From contig OY970150.1 of the NCBI GenBank assembly GCA_963706365.1, positions 1,338,788 to 1,402,787 of the forward strand: DNA of 64,000 nt, given 5' to 3'. Positions 51,217 through 55,420 of the stretch are shown here, piece by piece (the first letter of the stretch is position 1; each line of letters starts with the position of its first letter). Under the pieces are notes generated by a model. It did not search any database, had not been told where the DNA came from, and saw nothing but the letters and a program-made list of their open reading frames with translations. Origin of the DNA: an uncultured Alphaproteobacteria bacterium (lineage in GTDB: Bacteria > Pseudomonadota > Alphaproteobacteria > JAJTHO01 > G963706365). A program made the translations under genes and the position numbers.

Positions 51217-52650
51217 TTATTGTAAATTAGCCGTCAAAATATCGATACTTACTTTCGTTTGATGGTAAAGCGTATTGGCAGCAATGATTTTGAGCTGTGC
51301 TTTAATGAGATTTTCGTCGCGCAGTACGAGTAAAAAATAATCGCTGTCGCCGTTGTTGACGCGCTGTTGTTCTGCAGTTTGCATTTCCTTGGCTAATGCA
51401 ATTTCCTGGGTGGCTAGCGCTACATATTCTTGGGCAGTGTTTAAGATAACGATTAATTCTTCTAGCCTAAGCTGCAACTCCTCAAGACGTTGCGTTTGTT
51501 GATGTTCTAGCTGTCTTAGTTTTGCTTGTGTTTGGGCAATGGCGCCATCTGCTTTGTTTTGTTGCAAAGGGAAACTGATGTTCAATTTTACAATGGTTTC
51601 GGCTTCTTCTCTTGATTCTAAACCACTGCCATAGTCATTGGCATGTTCTAGCATTAGATCGGCCTTAGGCAGGCGATTATTCTTGTTAAACAAAAGCTGA
51701 TTTTCTAATTGTTCCGCTTGTCTTTCTAACTGCAGTACTTCTGGGCGTTGCTGTAACCAGGCTTCACTTACGGCAGTAGAATCTTCTGTTGTGATTTCTT
51801 CTAGGGAATCAGGCAATTGTGATTTTTGGGCAATAATAGGTTTGCCTTCTATGTTGCGATAATAAAGCGATAGCGCAATAGCTGCCTGTTGAAGCTTGCG
51901 CCTGGCATTGGTGACATCAATTTTGCGTCGCACAATATATTGCTGGTTTTCAGTTAAGTAAATGCGAGCAATATCACCGGCTTTGAATTGGCTTTCAAAT
52001 GCTTGTTGGCGTTCATTGGCAACGTCTAGTAATTGGTGATAAGTATTATAACTAAAACCTGCCGCTACCCACTCCCAGTAATAAAGCTGTGCCTCTTCTT
52101 CAATGGCTAGGGTTGTCTGAAAAATCTCTGCCTGAGTTCGTTCTTGTTCTAGCAATGCGTTTTTTAAGCCTAGGCGGCGGGCATCAATGTTACGGTTGCG
52201 CAATAAGGAAAGTTTGGCACCAATTAACCATTCGCCATCTTCTGTGGTAATGTTTTTGTCTTCATAGATAGGGAAAGAGCCATCAGAAAGGCGATAGCCT
52301 GTGTAGAATGTTGAATTCATGGGGGCGAACGGTTTCACCAGCCTTGTGTCAATTTGCTGGCCATCGTAAAATCCGTCGATACGCGAAGAAATATCTTGTT
52401 CAATACTGGCGTCAAATGCACCTTCAGCCTCTAAAATAGCGCCCTCTGCAGTATTTTCTAATTCTTTGGCGGCTAATATTTTGGGGGAATGCAACCGGGC
52501 GGTTGTCACCACATGATGTGGTTTTAACGTAGCGATAATCGGGGCAGATTTTTTCAAGGTATCGGGCAGTAATACAGGTACCCTGATTGTCTCCGCTAGA
52601 GCCATCTCACTAAACAAGAAGCTGCTTAAAATTAACAGAGTACAACGCAT
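51217..52650 (-). CDS. TolC-family outer-membrane efflux protein
   Basis: Signal peptide and two long coiled-coil-rich repeats typical of OEP/TolC proteins. Its start overlaps the HlyD stop. Confidence 0.8.
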   Translation of the reverse strand: MRCTLLILSSFLFSEMALAETIRVPVLLPDTLKKSAPIIATLKPHHVVTTARLHSPKILAAKELENTAEGAILEAEGAFDASIEQDISSRIDGFYDGQQIDTRLVKPFAPMNSTFYTGYRLSDGSFPIYEDKNITTEDGEWLIGAKLSLLRNRNIDARRLGLKNALLEQERTQAEIFQTTLAIEEEAQLYYWEWVAAGFSYNTYHQLLDVANERQQAFESQFKAGDIARIYLTENQQYIVRRKIDVTNARRKLQQAAIALSLYYRNIEGKPIIAQKSQLPDSLEEITTEDSTAVSEAWLQQRPEVLQLERQAEQLENQLLFNKNNRLPKADLMLEHANDYGSGLESREEAETIVKLNISFPLQQNKADGAIAQTQAKLRQLEHQQTQRLEELQLRLEELIVILNTAQEYVALATQEIALAKEMQTAEQQRVNNGDSDYFLLVLRDENLIKAQLKIIAANTLYHQTKVSIDILTANLQ

Positions 52651-53702
52651 TATTTCGCATCCTCTGTATTATTTGGATCTAGGAAATCGGGGGGGAAATT
52701 ATTGAGCTGTCGCCAAAGTTCATAACCTACGCTAACTGTTTCTAGTAATACCCAGCCTTTTACCTTTGTGCCTAGGCGTAAAAAACGTTCTTCCGGCCAA
52801 GGATGTGTATCTTCAGGATCAGGAACCACAATAACACGGAATTTACCGTTGGCACCGACCGAAGGATTAATAGACTGCACCACACCACCAAATGTACCAA
52901 CTGCACTGGTCGGCCAGCCACTAAATTGAATAACCGGCCAGCCTTCAAACTGTAACCGCACCTTACGACCCTCTCGCAACAAGGGCATGTTTAAGCTATC
53001 AACAAATAACTCTACGGCTAAGATTACGTCAGAAGGCGCAAAGCTGAGCAGCTTATCGCCCTGCTTTACAGTAGTGCCACTAGCGCCAGAAATTAACGAT
53101 AAAATAGTACCATCTCGCGGGGCAACAATAACTTGAGTATCTTGCCGCGATAGTTTTACCTCAATTTGCTGTAGTTTTGCCTTCGCCTGGGATTGTTTTG
53201 ATAGAAGCGTTTTATATTTTATACGCGAATCTTCATATTCCCGTTCTGATGATAAACCTTGATTAACTAACAGGCGTTTTCGTTTCATATTCCGTTGTGC
53301 TGTTTCAGCGGCTAATTGGGTGAGGCGATAATCATTAGCAAGGGCATCTCGTTCAGCCTGCAGGCGTTCAATCAAGCGCTCATCGTTATCAACAATTTCT
53401 ACAATTTTATCACCTTTTTGAACAAAAGCGCCGTCCGTTACATACCACTGGTTAATACGTCCATCAACTAGGGCATTAATGTGTTGAATACGATTAGCAG
53501 GGTTTAGGGTGGTCAGGGTTCCCGTGGCTGTCGCTGTTTGCACCCAGGGAGTTATAATAAGAAAAGCAACAATACCGGCGCACATTAACAGTAAAAGTAT
53601 GGCTATGATCTTTCCAAGAGACAGCATTTTTAATGAATGGAGTGTTTTGAACCGCGCTAGTTCTTCGGGATCAAATTGAGGGTCAGCATACTTTTTCATC
53701 AT
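52650..53702 (-). CDS. HlyD-family periplasmic adaptor (membrane fusion protein)
   Basis: N-terminal TM anchor, lipoyl-like ..VDGRINQWYVTDGAFVQKGDKIVEI.., a coiled-coil hairpin and a beta-barrel domain. Confidence 0.85.
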   Translation of the reverse strand: MMKKYADPQFDPEELARFKTLHSLKMLSLGKIIAILLLLMCAGIVAFLIITPWVQTATATGTLTTLNPANRIQHINALVDGRINQWYVTDGAFVQKGDKIVEIVDNDERLIERLQAERDALANDYRLTQLAAETAQRNMKRKRLLVNQGLSSEREYEDSRIKYKTLLSKQSQAKAKLQQIEVKLSRQDTQVIVAPRDGTILSLISGASGTTVKQGDKLLSFAPSDVILAVELFVDSLNMPLLREGRKVRLQFEGWPVIQFSGWPTSAVGTFGGVVQSINPSVGANGKFRVIVVPDPEDTHPWPEERFLRLGTKVKGWVLLETVSVGYELWRQLNNFPPDFLDPNNTEDAK

Positions 53703-55420
53703 GCACTTCCCCCCCGTGTTGTATCCTGAAACCGTTGAAGCGCTGCAATAGAAGGCACTTCACGTTGCCCATCATCATCCATAATCATAAAGCGATCAAA
53801 AGAGCCTGTATTTAACTGTTGTGAAAAATACAGCAAGGTTAGTTCAGGAATAGCACATAGCCTGCTCATAATACGATCCCGCCGGGAACCAGAAATAATA
53901 TCAAAAAACTCATTTAATACCAAAATATGCGGTTTAGCTAATAAAGCCGCAGCCAATTTTAAGCGTAAGGTTTCTGATACGGTTAATGGTGGGCCTTCGA
54001 TACTTAGCGCTGTTAGCTCTTTTTGCGGCAACCGATCTATTTCCTGAGTCAATTCAACCATATCTAACACATCTCTAATTTCTGTATAACTTGCATGAGG
54101 CGCATCAATAGTTAAGTATTGTTGCACCGTTGTTTCAATAATAGTTGGTCTATCCAGTATAATTATACGATCTCTCAGTGGATGTTGTCTTAAATCCTCA
54201 ATATTAATATCACCTATTAATACCTTGCCCGCGCAAATAGTATCATAACGTTTGATAATATCAAAAAAGATGGCTTGCAGTTCATAGGATTCGCTACGAA
54301 TCAGTAGCTTGTCAGCCGGGTTTACCGTAAAATGCAGATTTAAGTTATTATCATGTAAAGATTTAACGCGCACGTTATCAAACGTCATGCCGGCAGGTTT
54401 CGTATTATCTAAAGTTAATTTCCCGCTAACTTCTTCTGTTGGAATATCAATAACACGATAAATTTCCTCCAGTGCGGCCACCAGGCTGTATAAACCTGCT
54501 AAACTATAGGCAATACGAGAAATGCCATAAAAAACGCCGGATAAGATTAGCTCTGCTGCAATCAATTGTCCTAAGCCTAGCTCCCCGCTAATAACTAAGC
54601 TACCGCCAAGCCCTAATAGACCTGAGTTGGCAATAACATACAACAGTAGCAGCCAAATTTGCTGGGAAAATACATGCCTGAAATGCGTCTCTCTTGCCTT
54701 AATGTAGTTGCCAGTTAATTTATCAGATTCATCCATAGCATACTGTCCATGCTGGCTACTTTTGTAGTAATCACTGGCTCGCGCCACATCTTCTAAATGC
54801 CGAGCAGTCCGATACTTTTCTTCTGATAAAATAATGGCACTATGCATGGCATGGTATCCCCAGAGCCGCCAACCTAACCATAACAACAGAACAAACATTA
54901 TTACGAAAACCAACAGCGCTGTGTGAAATGTTGCAACCACCACACAGCCCACAATGGTTTGCAGCAATGTTGCAAATAGCCCAACAACTAAGGCGGGTAA
55001 AATCTTTTGTACCTGCGTTACATCAAAATATCTATTTACCAGCTCATAACGATTTACACTTTTAAAATGCTTGCGATCTGCTTTTAACAACCGCATTGTA
55101 AATTCTGTTGTGATACGAGCATAGAATCGTCGCTCAAACCGTTCCATTACATAACTTTGCATGGCAATTAAAGAGGCCGCAAATAGCAGCAATAAAGATA
55201 AAACAATGGTTAATGTTACGACTGCCTTAAGTGATGCTGTGTTCGCTACGCTTGTTACCAATAACTGTACCGACACAGGCACTGCCAACATTAATAAACT
55301 GATTATAATGCCGTAAACAATTCCAACGAACAAAAATTGCTTATCTTCCCGTACAATTTCTTTAAACAAGACACCGCACAAAGCGCGTAAGTCTGATGAT
55401 TTTTTACTGATTTCGGTCAT
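53699..55420 (-). CDS. ABC-exporter-like protein: six-helix TMD plus a fully degenerate nucleotide-binding domain
   Basis: The TMD is typical of type-I-secretion/bacteriocin exporters. The NBD-sized C-terminus aligns to the HlyB NBD, but reads RSESYELQA at Walker A, LTVSE at the LSGGQ signature, ILVLNEFFD at Walker B and YFSQQ at the H-loop. There is no GK[ST] anywhere in the protein. Confidence 0.8.
   Translation of the reverse strand: MTEISKKSSDLRALCGVLFKEIVREDKQFLFVGIVYGIIISLLMLAVPVSVQLLVTSVANTASLKAVVTLTIVLSLLLLFAASLIAMQSYVMERFERRFYARITTEFTMRLLKADRKHFKSVNRYELVNRYFDVTQVQKILPALVVGLFATLLQTIVGCVVVATFHTALLVFVIMFVLLLWLGWRLWGYHAMHSAIILSEEKYRTARHLEDVARASDYYKSSQHGQYAMDESDKLTGNYIKARETHFRHVFSQQIWLLLLYVIANSGLLGLGGSLVISGELGLGQLIAAELILSGVFYGISRIAYSLAGLYSLVAALEEIYRVIDIPTEEVSGKLTLDNTKPAGMTFDNVRVKSLHDNNLNLHFTVNPADKLLIRSESYELQAIFFDIIKRYDTICAGKVLIGDINIEDLRQHPLRDRIIILDRPTIIETTVQQYLTIDAPHASYTEIRDVLDMVELTQEIDRLPQKELTALSIEGPPLTVSETLRLKLAAALLAKPHILVLNEFFDIISGSRRDRIMSRLCAIPELTLLYFSQQLNTGSFDRFMIMDDDGQREVPSIAALQRFQDTTRGGSA

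Follow-up and report, generated by a model that had tools for sequence, protein, structure and literature searches.

The closest described counterparts of the locus analysed here are the HlyB-HlyD-TolC and LssB-LssD systems and the PCAT/NHLP bacteriocin exporters, which likewise have three components encoded in one operon and a half-transporter of the type IV exporter fold. The same operon logic of transporter, adaptor (MFP), and outer-membrane factor (OMF) is seen in EmrAB-TolC, MacAB-TolC, and VarABCDEF, all with TM-anchored adaptors; VarABCDEF is LysR-controlled, and VarR offers a precedent for a local regulator (PMC5595328). The heterodimeric exporters TM287/288, TmrAB, CydDC, and Rv1273c/72c have the same fold and tolerate and conserve non-consensus catalytic residues; in them one site is canonical and the degenerate site has a Walker A motif and binds ATP (PMC7756269). 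There are also precedents for transport by ABC-type membrane domains that draws on ion gradients. SbmA/BacA (SLiPT), a proton-driven peptide transporter, combines an ABC-exporter-like membrane domain with ATP-free transport that relies on the proton gradient and on conserved glutamates (PMC8442886); experiments on the membrane domain of LmrA (LmrA-MD) show that it can act as a secondary-active translocator whose proton coupling requires a TM6 carboxylate, E314 (PMC6155054); and MsbA is a further precedent for ion-coupled transport through the membrane domain of such an exporter (PMC4979069).

The locus described here lies in a 64-kb window (the whole stretch of DNA analysed, to which all coordinates refer) and consists of three genes that overlap at both junctions, preceded by a presumed control region:

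53699-55420, minus strand: ABC-exporter-fold inner-membrane protein with a pseudo-NBD, 573 aa (ORF; PF00664)
52650-53702, minus strand: membrane-anchored periplasmic adaptor (MFP), 350 aa (HlyD_3, Biotin_lipoyl_2, HlyD_D23)
51217-52650, minus strand: TolC-like outer-membrane factor (OMF), 477 aa (PF02321 OEP)
55421-55814, minus strand: upstream intergenic region between glmS and the triad, 394 bp, presumed promoter/5' region

The stop codon of the ABC-like gene overlaps the MFP start as ATGA (junction sequence GCATGATGAAA), and the MFP stop overlaps the OMF start as TAATG (AAATAATGCG); both overlaps had been claimed in an earlier, sequence-only reading of this DNA, and the 573-codon ORF is intact. 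The triad resembles type I secretion systems in the N-terminal TM anchor of its adaptor and in its TolC-like OMF, although it differs from the HlyB, LssB, and PCAT systems in having neither ATPase motifs, nor a C39 or C39-like domain, nor a nearby RTX or GG-leader substrate gene, and its adaptor is ~100 aa shorter than HlyD. The adaptor domain set (lipoyl, short hairpin, beta-barrel) is like that of tripartite efflux adaptors, but the inner-membrane component belongs neither to MFS nor to the MacB type; its fold is that of a type IV ABC exporter, and its NBD is dead. A literature search returned no published description of this triad family.

PF00664 is the only Pfam match of the ABC-like protein, at 28.9 bits against a gathering cutoff of 28. 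Its best NCBIfam models, TIGR01193 and TIGR01846 for type I secretion (T1SS) and bacteriocin ABC proteins, align weakly over the full length with scores of 84–93 bits, 6–9 times below the family cutoffs of >500, and the LssB model is matched over its whole length, N-terminal region included, by the longer relatives. Among PDB sequences, HlyB, ComA, and PCAT1 align end to end, HlyB (7sgr) being the top match (E 6.6e-19, residues 26–548), and the isolated NBD of TM_0288 (4q7l) is matched by phmmer over residues 362–551 (E 5.7e-11). An AlphaFold2 (AF2) model, built on 18 sequences, has a pLDDT of 79, and its best Foldseek matches are the full-length type IV ABC exporters Rv1273c/72c, PCAT1, TM287/288, and HlyB (TMq up to 0.67). 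Two domains are delimited:

54446-55363, minus strand: six-helix TMD, residues about 20–325 (AF2)
53756-54403, minus strand: NBD-like C-terminal domain, residues about 340–555, with the fold kept and the catalytic motifs replaced (AF2, phmmer)

The model places the TMD helices at residues 11–61, 64–113, 124–158, 168–214, 222–277, and 283–324, and pLDDT is >90 across most of residues 340–560. The six-helix exporter TMD and HlyB-like, NBD-sized domain of the sequence-only reading are thus borne out by the HlyB alignment, AF2, and Foldseek. The best explanation is that the inner-membrane component descends from an ABC half-transporter of the type I secretion type and keeps its six-helix TMD, coupling region, and NBD fold.

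Residue alignment with HlyB shows that the five ATPase motifs are replaced, as that reading had proposed:

54272-54298, minus strand: Walker A remnant RSESYELQA, residues 375–383, opposite HlyB GRSGSGKST
54146-54166, minus strand: Q-loop remnant IIILDRP, residues 419–425, with the HlyB Gln opposite D423
53972-53986, minus strand: signature remnant LTVSE, residues 479–483, opposite HlyB LSGGQ
53900-53926, minus strand: Walker B / D-loop remnant ILVLNEFFD, residues 499–507, with ILVLNE opposite HlyB ILIFDE
53816-53830, minus strand: H-loop remnant YFSQQ, residues 531–535, with the HlyB His opposite S533

The PF00005 profile, proposed earlier as a check, has no match to the whole protein at E<=1 or to its C-terminal 229 aa at E<=10, and neither profile nor structure alignments place intact motifs elsewhere. 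A pattern scan agrees that GK[ST] is absent throughout the protein, as is [AG]x4G[KR][ST], and across all frames of 51200-55450 there is no P-loop or LSGGQ other than one off-frame GKTT. The ccmA gene (5306-5905, minus strand), offered previously as an internal control, does encode all three quoted motifs intact (GDNGIGKSS, LSAGQQQR, LWLLDEP), and no other ORF of >=100 aa in the window combines a Walker A with a signature motif. The sequence evidence supports an ABC-like protein with no ATP site of its own, and it presumably does not bind ATP.

The replaced columns are themselves conserved. In the 92 aligned sequences the Walker A Lys has become Gln in 63 and the adjoining Ser/Thr has become Arg in 58. 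The Q-loop Gln has given way to the pair D423-R424 (D in 72/92, R in 75/92; each 85% conserved in the core family), and the signature column reads L-S-x-x-E, with the Glu present in 72/92 and the flanking residues G476, P478, L479, L487, K488, and A490 conserved. The Walker B Asp column holds S or N in 65/92, and the catalytic-Glu column holds Q in 42/92 and E in 16/92; the protein described here has Asn at the Asp position followed by a retained Glu at 504, where most relatives have Gln. D507 is conserved in 89/92 but pairs with the Ser of SALD rather than with the D-loop Asp, and the H-loop His is Ser or Thr in 89/92. Other conserved residues, namely Q382/R383, D423-R424, E483, and D507, thus stand in for the lost motifs. 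This partial replacement and the family-wide scope of the loss go beyond what the earlier reading could see.

Relatives of the ABC-like protein are carried by at least 585 GTDB species, and the ABC, MFP, and OMF genes occur in identical order at 84 of 86 related loci in Alpha- and Gammaproteobacteria. A canonical Walker A is found in none of the 84 core homologues, and the motif-less state spans both proteobacterial classes. The dN/dS of the NBD-like domain is about 0.07–0.2 for pairs with dS<1, and its median over 142 pairs is 0.26. The orthologue comparison proposed earlier therefore gives a motif loss common to 84/84 core homologues with low dN/dS: the dead domain is under purifying selection, and the loss characterises the whole family, in hundreds of species. 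Because the profile, orthologue, and partner tests (the last described below) all came out in favour, we conclude that the ABC-like gene is maintained and is neither an artefact nor in decay. Across the larger superfamily, which comprises about 1,000 clusters when grouped at 50% identity, erosion of the ATPase motifs is repeated and mosaic, with >=24 changes of Walker A state on a TMD-only tree; a Walker A, signature-like motif, DE, and His are kept together in only 4/139 representatives.

At the periplasm-proximal TM ends 36% of positions are conserved at >=95%, against 8% in the cytoplasmic and remaining TMD and 5% in the NBD-like domain, the inverse of the pattern of an ABC transporter that works. 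The hot spot of the family comprises the periplasmic ends of TM1, TM3, TM4, TM5, and TM6, and includes two features:

54548-54571, minus strand: TM6 start motif GQLIAAEL with the carboxylate E290 (codon 54551-54553), from the family alignment
54923-54925, minus strand: His166 at the periplasmic start of TM4, 100% conserved

Within the TM6 motif G284, Q285, L286, A288, E290, and L291 are 100% conserved in the 84 core homologues, and E290 is retained in 135/139 superfamily representatives. Relatives with a retained Walker A conserve this Glu too, so that it is not specifically tied to loss of the ATP site. The protein described here keeps 56 of 61 near-invariant family positions; it is among the more divergent members, since it departs at the other five, including P167T.

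Among the three proteins conservation is highest in the MFP (41–56% identity), with 65/350 positions conserved at >=95%, including PWVQT, FEGWP..QFSGWPS, and GYE.WRQLN.FP. RND_mfp is its best NCBIfam match (80.9 bits, below cutoff), ahead of type_I_hlyD, and its best PDB sequence matches are TriA/B, MacA, and EmrA. The OMF matches PF02321 OEP in two stretches (78 bits), with no match to PDB sequences at E<=0.01, and its gene lies downstream of the MFP gene in 84/86 related loci.

The three triad genes are the only ones common to the related loci. A LysR-type regulator is found upstream in 21/84, with no other recurrent upstream neighbour and no recurrent neighbour downstream; LysR, MarR, or TetR regulators lie beside many relatives, an adjacency typical of small-molecule efflux, and no regulator gene adjoins the triad in the source genome, where a neighbouring TPS-domain gene is fragmented. 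As reported before, there is no adjacent RTX substrate or GG-leader: no ORF in the window has RTX repeats, and ORFs in the 394-bp upstream region are all <=47 aa, none with a GG-leader. Nor is an ABC partner or substrate gene conserved across the related loci (86 for the partner, 84 for a substrate). The search for a canonical partner at homologous loci, another of the earlier suggestions, found a single case (L017), in which the ABC exporter immediately upstream is an unrelated MsbA/Atm1-like protein (21% identity).

Our preferred reading, held with moderate confidence, is that the triad is an ATP-independent tripartite efflux system that is either powered by ion-motive force or acts as a gated conduit. 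The ABC-like protein would most likely form a homodimer with two dead sites, docking the membrane-anchored adaptor, which would bridge to the TolC-like duct. Export may be powered by ion-motive force acting on the membrane domain rather than by its own NBDs or, alternatively, the substrate may move down its electrochemical gradient through a gated conduit. Q52, H166, Q285, and E290, an invariant cluster where TM1, TM4, and TM6 end on the periplasmic side, form a candidate coupling or gating site, and the pseudo-NBD, coupled to the TMD, may be kept as a structural module for dimerisation and gating. A small molecule is a more probable cargo than a protein. The precedents differ in several respects: SbmA/BacA is an importer that is not tripartite, has no NBD or coupling helices, and has no detected sequence relationship to the ABC-like protein; LmrA-MD is an engineered truncation; and native LmrA and MsbA are ATPases. 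E290 is also not at the position of LmrA E314, lying ~18 residues nearer the periplasm as estimated by offset from the Walker A lysine.

The same conservation pattern could be read differently, with the ABC-like protein serving not as a transporter but as a scaffold or regulator. It would then be a static platform or sensor in the inner membrane that holds the adaptor-TolC duct while the membrane domain moves nothing actively, for example as an envelope tether, a passive vent, or a partner in the assembly or regulation of another pump. The protein has no recognisable energy module, conservation peaks in the adaptor and on the periplasmic surface presumed to face it, and no substrate gene is conserved nearby. 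We nevertheless consider this unlikely. Purifying selection persists on the cytoplasmic coupling region and NBD fold, which is hard to reconcile with a mere anchor because one TM helix would be enough; the invariant buried carboxylate and polar TM residues better fit a translocation or coupling site, and the adjacent regulators are like those of inducible efflux pumps. Energy could instead come from a canonical ABC half-transporter encoded elsewhere; the two would form a heterodimer, like TM287/288, TmrAB, and CydDC, in which one ATP site works fully or in part. Heterodimeric exporters that have a single degenerate site are common (PMC7756269), and our partner search in the source genome covered the 64-kb window, so that a partner may be encoded elsewhere in that genome. 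The triad protein, however, has lost Walker A, Q-loop, signature, Walker B Asp, and H-loop and has no linked partner gene, whereas known degenerate sites bind ATP through an intact Walker A; since both Walker A and signature are gone, any heterodimer would have a defect in each of its two composite sites. The upstream exporter at L017, which might suggest such pairing, occurs only once, and paralogous copies of the triad (L069, L083) each bring their own adaptor and OMF. We regard a heterodimer as distinctly improbable.

Classical type I secretion of a protein or peptide, with a C-terminal-signal or GG-leader substrate encoded elsewhere and energised through an unrecognised nucleotide site or a T1SS PMF step, would account for the nearest models being T1SS and bacteriocin ABC proteins (TIGR01193, TIGR01846, and LssB for the long relatives), for HlyB as best PDB sequence match, and perhaps for the beta-helix protein gene upstream of one distant relative (L007). 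Those model scores are nonetheless far under their cutoffs, neither RTX repeats nor GG-leader ORFs occur in the window, the 84 loci have no substrate gene in common, and the short adaptor and small-molecule-type regulators point to efflux, which makes this reading very improbable. Still harder to sustain is a decaying relic, with a small genome in which an ABC transporter gene is turning into a pseudogene; in its favour one might cite the broken TPS-domain neighbour, the 1.87-Mb contig, and the divergence of this member. An intact ORF overlapping at both junctions, retention of most near-invariant positions, dN/dS well under 1, and motif loss shared by all 84 core homologues in two classes effectively refute it at the family level.

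The upstream intergenic region contains a dispersed repeat:

55526-55662, upstream intergenic region: one copy of a dispersed palindromic repeat (inverted repeat, 37-nt arms)

Two more copies of this repeat occur elsewhere in the window, and the upstream region that carries it has a fold z-score of -9.5.

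The triad consists of three minus-strand genes, which encode an ABC-like protein, an adaptor (MFP) and a TolC-like OMF:

53699-55420, minus strand, ORF for the ABC-like protein (573 aa), Pfam match ABC_membrane only
52650-53702, minus strand, ORF for the adaptor (350 aa), Pfam matches HlyD_3, Biotin_lipoyl_2 and HlyD_D23
51217-52650, minus strand, ORF for the OMF (477 aa), Pfam match PF02321 (OEP), 78 bits

The gene overlaps behind the translational coupling proposed in the sequence-only reading are borne out, with stop and start sharing ATGA at the ABC-like/MFP junction (GCATGATGAAA) and TAATG at the MFP/OMF junction (AAATAATGCG). 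Overlapping transporter, MFP and OMF genes are the co-transcribed layout of a tripartite efflux pump. Upstream of the triad in the window lies glmS, and downstream a DeoC/LacD-type aldolase gene. The best NCBIfam model for the adaptor is RND_mfp (80.9 bits), and TIGR01843 gives 57.8 bits against a cutoff of 208.7; its best PDB sequence matches are TriA/B, MacA and EmrA. Of the triad's products it is the best conserved, at 41-56% identity to relatives versus 34-48% for the ABC-like protein, with near-invariant motifs PWVQT right after the TM helix and FEGWP..QFSGWPS and GYE.WRQLN.FP near the C-terminus.

The fold of the ABC-like protein is that of a type IV ABC exporter. PF00664 matches residues 30-294 at 28.9 bits (cutoff 28), and an AlphaFold2 model of the monomer, built on a shallow 18-sequence alignment (mean pLDDT 79), has the six long TM helices of ABC_membrane and an NBD-like domain in which most of residues 340-560 score above pLDDT 90. 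Foldseek comparison with the PDB returns the full-length type IV ABC exporters Rv1273c/72c, PCAT1, TM287/288, CydDC and HlyB (TMq 0.66), in alignments spanning 560-620 columns. By phmmer, residues 26-548 align to HlyB (7sgr, E 6.6e-19), residues 35-551 to ComA, and residues 362-551 to the isolated NBD of TM_0288 (4q7l, E 5.7e-11); PCAT1 is also aligned through its NBD. To judge from these alignments, the C-terminal domain is homologous to an NBD, despite the lack of a PF00005 match. Because the fold is intact in the AlphaFold2 and Foldseek results, we regard the protein as an ABC exporter by architecture and not by catalytic equipment.

The phmmer alignments to HlyB, ComA and 4q7l confirm the claim that the ABC component has lost every ATPase motif, and the replacements are largely shared by the family.

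Replacement of ATPase motifs in the ABC-like protein (aligned positions; Walker A aligned to HlyB) and in a 92-sequence family alignment
Walker A, canonical GRSGSGKST: RSESYELQA; in the family, Gln at the Lys position (63/92) and Arg at the Ser/Thr position (58/92)
Q-loop, canonical Gln: D423; in the family, an Asp-Arg pair (72/92 and 75/92)
Signature, canonical LSGGQ: LTVSE; in the family, L-S-x-x-E (Glu 72/92)
Walker B, canonical ILIFDE: ILVLNE (N503-E504); in the family, Ser or Asn at the Asp position
H-loop, canonical His: S533; in the family, Ser or Thr (89/92)

Only Glu504, at the catalytic Glu position, remains in the window protein, and most relatives carry Gln there. PF00005 finds no match in the whole protein at E≤1 or in the C-terminal 229 aa alone at E≤10, so the proposed profile check places no intact motif elsewhere, and GK[ST] is absent from the entire protein. 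A hidden P-loop or LSGGQ at the locus was rejected after a six-frame scan of 51200-55450, in which the sole match was an off-frame GKTT. CcmA (5306-5905) retains GDNGIGKSS, LSAGQ and LWLLDEP, as had been noted, and the window has no other canonical ABC ATPase. On sequence grounds, neither ATP binding nor hydrolysis by the ABC-like protein is predicted, and an ATPase would be excluded as the energy module of the triad.

This protein belongs to a widespread family. A word-indexed protein search gave approximately 100 clusters at 35-54% identity, nearly all with PF00664 only and many from Sphingomonadales, and relatives were confirmed in at least 585 GTDB species, with one genome scanned per species. 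The best 80 of these include Alphaproteobacteria (Sphingomonas, Erythrobacter, Novosphingobium, Kordiimonas and Caulobacter), Gammaproteobacteria (Alteromonas, Paraglaciecola, Salinimonas, Wenzhouxiangella and Cellvibrionaceae), one Myxococcota MAG and one Hydrogenophaga; the closest relatives among the GTDB-species matches listed are uncultured Alphaproteobacteria MAGs at 45-46% identity. Next 3' of the ABC-like gene come a homologue of this adaptor and then one of this OMF, an order seen in 84 of 86 non-redundant loci. The genomic surroundings vary by lineage, and the triad therefore behaves as a self-contained module.

A canonical Walker A is missing from all 84 core homologues. Residues in the domain's columns do not vary at random: besides the replacements above, 89 of the 92 aligned sequences have an Asp three residues ahead of where the D-loop Asp canonically sits, and conservation is high in the helix that follows the signature (L487, K488, L489, A490). 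We estimated omega pairwise by the Nei-Gojobori method with a crude script of our own. Among unsaturated pairs (dS<1) the NBD-like domain has values of 0.07-0.2 and the TMD 0.02-0.2, with medians over 142 pairs of 0.26 and 0.16, respectively; the estimates are drawn from closer family pairs, the window gene's own nearest relative being only 54% identical. The low omega indicates that the dead domain is kept by purifying selection. Orthologues thus share the motif loss at low dN/dS, as the sequence-only reading had asked, and the loss appears to be ancestral to the window protein's clade and under selection. The window protein is itself among the more divergent members and departs from five of 61 near-invariant positions (Y165F, P167T, A262V, S265N and V287I). 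Conservation at the five is 96-100% among 83 relatives, and the consensus residue stands at each of them in the six relatives nearest to the window protein. We note that residues 165-167 (window 54920-54928) span the invariant H166; the five substitutions may reflect lineage-specific drift, or adaptation beside that His.

In ABC transporters the NBD is usually the most conserved part, and the pattern in this family is the reverse. Positions at least 95% conserved make up 36% of the periplasm-proximal TM helix ends and loops, 8% of the cytoplasmic TMD extensions and inner membrane halves, and just 5% of the NBD-like domain. Invariant residues include P48, V51 and Q52 at the end of TM1, H166 at the start of TM4, G272 and G273 at the end of TM5, and the set G284-Q285-L286-x-A288-x-E290-L291 at the start of TM6; E290 is kept in 135 of 139 representatives of the wider superfamily. 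This distribution points to the periplasmic surface of the inner membrane, and to the interface with the adaptor, as the functional core.

An exhaustive phmmer search over 1.84 billion cluster representatives recovered 1,071 proteins at E≤1e-30, rising to 2,423 when the threshold is E≤1e-10, and motifs were surveyed in the 139 best full-length representatives, 61 of them long forms (≥640 aa) and 78 short forms. What sets the long forms apart is an additional domain of about 170-230 aa at the N-terminus, which has no Pfam match in P0160-P0267 (690-790 aa). Long forms likewise occur in ABC-MFP-OMF triads, and one long form, P0107, can be aligned to the LssB T1SS model over the entire length, the model's N-terminal (C39-like) part included, albeit at 195 bits, far under the cutoff. 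Walker A is kept in 35 of the 61 long forms, hhhDE in 15, the H-loop His in eight, the Q-loop Gln in five and LSGGQ in one, such that every intermediate stage of motif erosion is on display; among short forms, Walker A is kept in 10/78. Walker A, a signature-like motif, DE and His are found together in only four of the 139. In a rough NJ tree of the TMD alone, the window protein's clade comprises 32 representatives, all lacking the P-loop, and Fitch counting gives at least 24 changes in Walker A state over the whole tree, itself a rough estimate. The trajectory suggested by these patterns is that a T1SS-type ABC protein lost its accessory N-terminal domain and repeatedly lost ATP-site residues; such repeated loss would mean that ATP hydrolysis is not strongly required in the lineage.

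We clustered all ORFs of the 86 loci and took a Pfam census of immediate neighbours (84 loci upstream, 78 downstream). Beyond the triad no gene is common to the 86 loci, other frequent clusters being antisense shadow ORFs over the triad itself, and no downstream gene recurs in the 78. A LysR-type regulator lies immediately upstream in 21 of the 84 loci, every other Pfam family being seen six times at most. Alteromonadaceae have the LysR gene in divergent orientation, some 100 bp from the triad (L018, L019, L021, L027, L028, L030, L031, L045, L048, L053), and in sphingomonads and Kordiimonas it is directly upstream (L020, L029, L033, L074, L079, L091), co-oriented in several sphingomonads. A MarR gene lies beside a related short form, a distant relative, and a TetR gene beside one long form. 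No small-molecule-responsive regulator adjoins the window's triad, its neighbours being glmS and the aldolase gene. The ligand of a triad-linked LysR could reveal the substrate. The absence of an adjacent RTX substrate or GG-leader peptide also holds: there is no RTX-repeat ORF in the window and no GG-leader ORF in the 394-bp spacer upstream of the triad, and no conserved neighbour in 84 loci represents a linked secreted substrate gene; a substrate may be encoded at another site.

Tripartite pumps are classed by their inner-membrane energy module, which is either ABC (ATP) or RND, MFS or PET (proton-motive force). The triad is related to T1SS/PCAT ABC systems and fits the tripartite-pump framework, and it shares the fold of type IV ABC exporters (PF00664 plus PF00005) but not their defining catalytic features. 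In known degenerate ABC exporters one site stays canonical and the other still binds ATP through its Walker A (PMC7756269), whereas the ABC-like protein has no ATP-site motif at all. SbmA/BacA has an ABC-exporter-type membrane domain and is proton-driven through conserved glutamates (PMC8442886); in contrast to these SLiPT proteins, which have no NBD or coupling helices, an NBD-like domain is present here, and the ABC-like protein has no SbmA_BacA Pfam match. Together with SbmA/BacA, the precedents for use of an ion gradient by such a membrane domain are LmrA-MD, with its TM6 carboxylate E314 (PMC6155054), and MsbA, reported to be proton-coupled (PMC4979069). Equating E290 with the position of LmrA E314 was rejected, as the Walker A offset puts E314 about 18 residues further along TM6, and the resemblance would thus be a lead and not homology. 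We found no description of a fully degenerate, TolC-linked tripartite ABC system with a retained NBD fold in the open-access literature or in a tripartite-pump review; a Zymomonas efflux paper deals with FUSC- and RbbA-type pumps and not with this family.

A tentative explanation, and one we regard as possible without calling it probable, is that this is a large, undescribed superfamily, with approximately 1,000 clusters at 50% identity matching at E≤1e-30, in which a T1SS-type ABC exporter has naturally become the ATP-independent, ion-motive-force-driven engine of a TolC-dependent pump, with a pseudoenzyme NBD that gates or stabilises the dimer. On the less far-reaching explanation that we favour, the ABC-like protein would form a homodimer with two dead sites, and its pseudo-NBD would serve as a dimerisation and gating module. 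Export might be driven by ion-motive force via the membrane domain, or the protein could be a gated conduit down the substrate's electrochemical gradient; candidate residues for ion coupling are E290, H166 and Q285, all invariant. Two features suggest a small-molecule cargo: the LysR, MarR and TetR genes beside some of the triads, and an adaptor that is short and of efflux type. That the subunit is instead a static scaffold or regulator is rather unlikely.

A heterodimer with a partner encoded elsewhere in the genome is less plausible still. Where one genome has paralogues, each copy comes with an adaptor and OMF of its own (L069 and L083; P0064), and the Sphingomonas prati paralogue P0064, examined for a partner, has its own triad and no second ABC adjacent. 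No second half-transporter adjoins the window's triad, as had been stated, and the 86 loci offer a single exception, a canonical MsbA/Atm1-like exporter (GHSGSGKS, LSGGE) immediately upstream of the degenerate gene in a gammaproteobacterial MAG (L017 3978-5822, plus strand), which at 21% identity is unrelated and was judged coincidental. A classical protein T1SS is improbable, every T1SS ABC model cutoff being missed by the ABC-like protein (TIGR01846, 83.7 bits against 725.6; TIGR03375, 58.3 against 693.1; TIGR01842, 46.4 against 510.2). Least credible is a decaying relic, which the family-level data effectively exclude; the neighbouring TPS-domain gene is fragmented, and therefore some relaxation is possible in this particular genome.

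Hundreds of Alpha- and Gammaproteobacteria thus conserve an ABC-fold subunit without an ATP site, together with its adaptor and duct, and either an ABC-exporter membrane domain is driven by a non-NBD source in nature or the NBD is kept for a structural or gating role. Whether ion coupling is intrinsic to the membrane domains of ABC exporters has been debated on the strength of studies of LmrA, MsbA and SbmA, and the question is directly testable with this family because the protein is natural and no engineered truncation is needed. If the ion-driven explanation is true, nature would have carried out its own version of the LmrA-MD experiment in this family, which would stand, still living, between the primary-active ABC exporters and secondary transporters of the SbmA kind; the patchwork in which Walker A, the catalytic Glu and the H-loop His have repeatedly been lost would imply that ATP hydrolysis became dispensable early in superfamily history. 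NCBI names the family "ABC transporter ATP-binding protein" or "ABC transporter transmembrane domain-containing protein", and some 1,000 sequence clusters annotated with the first of these names are probably unable to bind ATP.

Several other features of the window were recorded:

55526-55662, intergenic, first copy of a palindromic repeat (about 125 nt, dispersed), lying between glmS and the triad
11267-11387, intergenic, second copy
44065-44185, intergenic, third copy
57774-59674 and 60414-63773, plus strand, TPS-domain region, the TPS domain split between ORFs 57774-58046 and 58060-58281
48015-48335, minus strand, zeta-subunit ATPase-inhibitor ORF (PF07345, 50.6 bits), adjoining comEC (48419-50116)

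The palindromic repeat has 37-nt arms that are 86% complementary, with an RNA fold of -73 kcal/mol (z = -9.5), and looks like a REP/MITE-like element rather than a regulator specific to this locus. A role for the hairpin at 55526-55662 as a riboswitch was ruled out, as it is one of three dispersed copies and Rfam has no match in the window. The split TPS domain is followed by further short ORFs and then by a 1,119-aa ORF with four MBG (YGX-type) repeats; the region is probably a frameshifted, pseudogenised filamentous-haemagglutinin-like adhesin gene, whose product would be a type Vb substrate, and is unrelated to the triad. PF07345 is characteristic of Alphaproteobacteria, and its match supports the alphaproteobacterial placement of the window.
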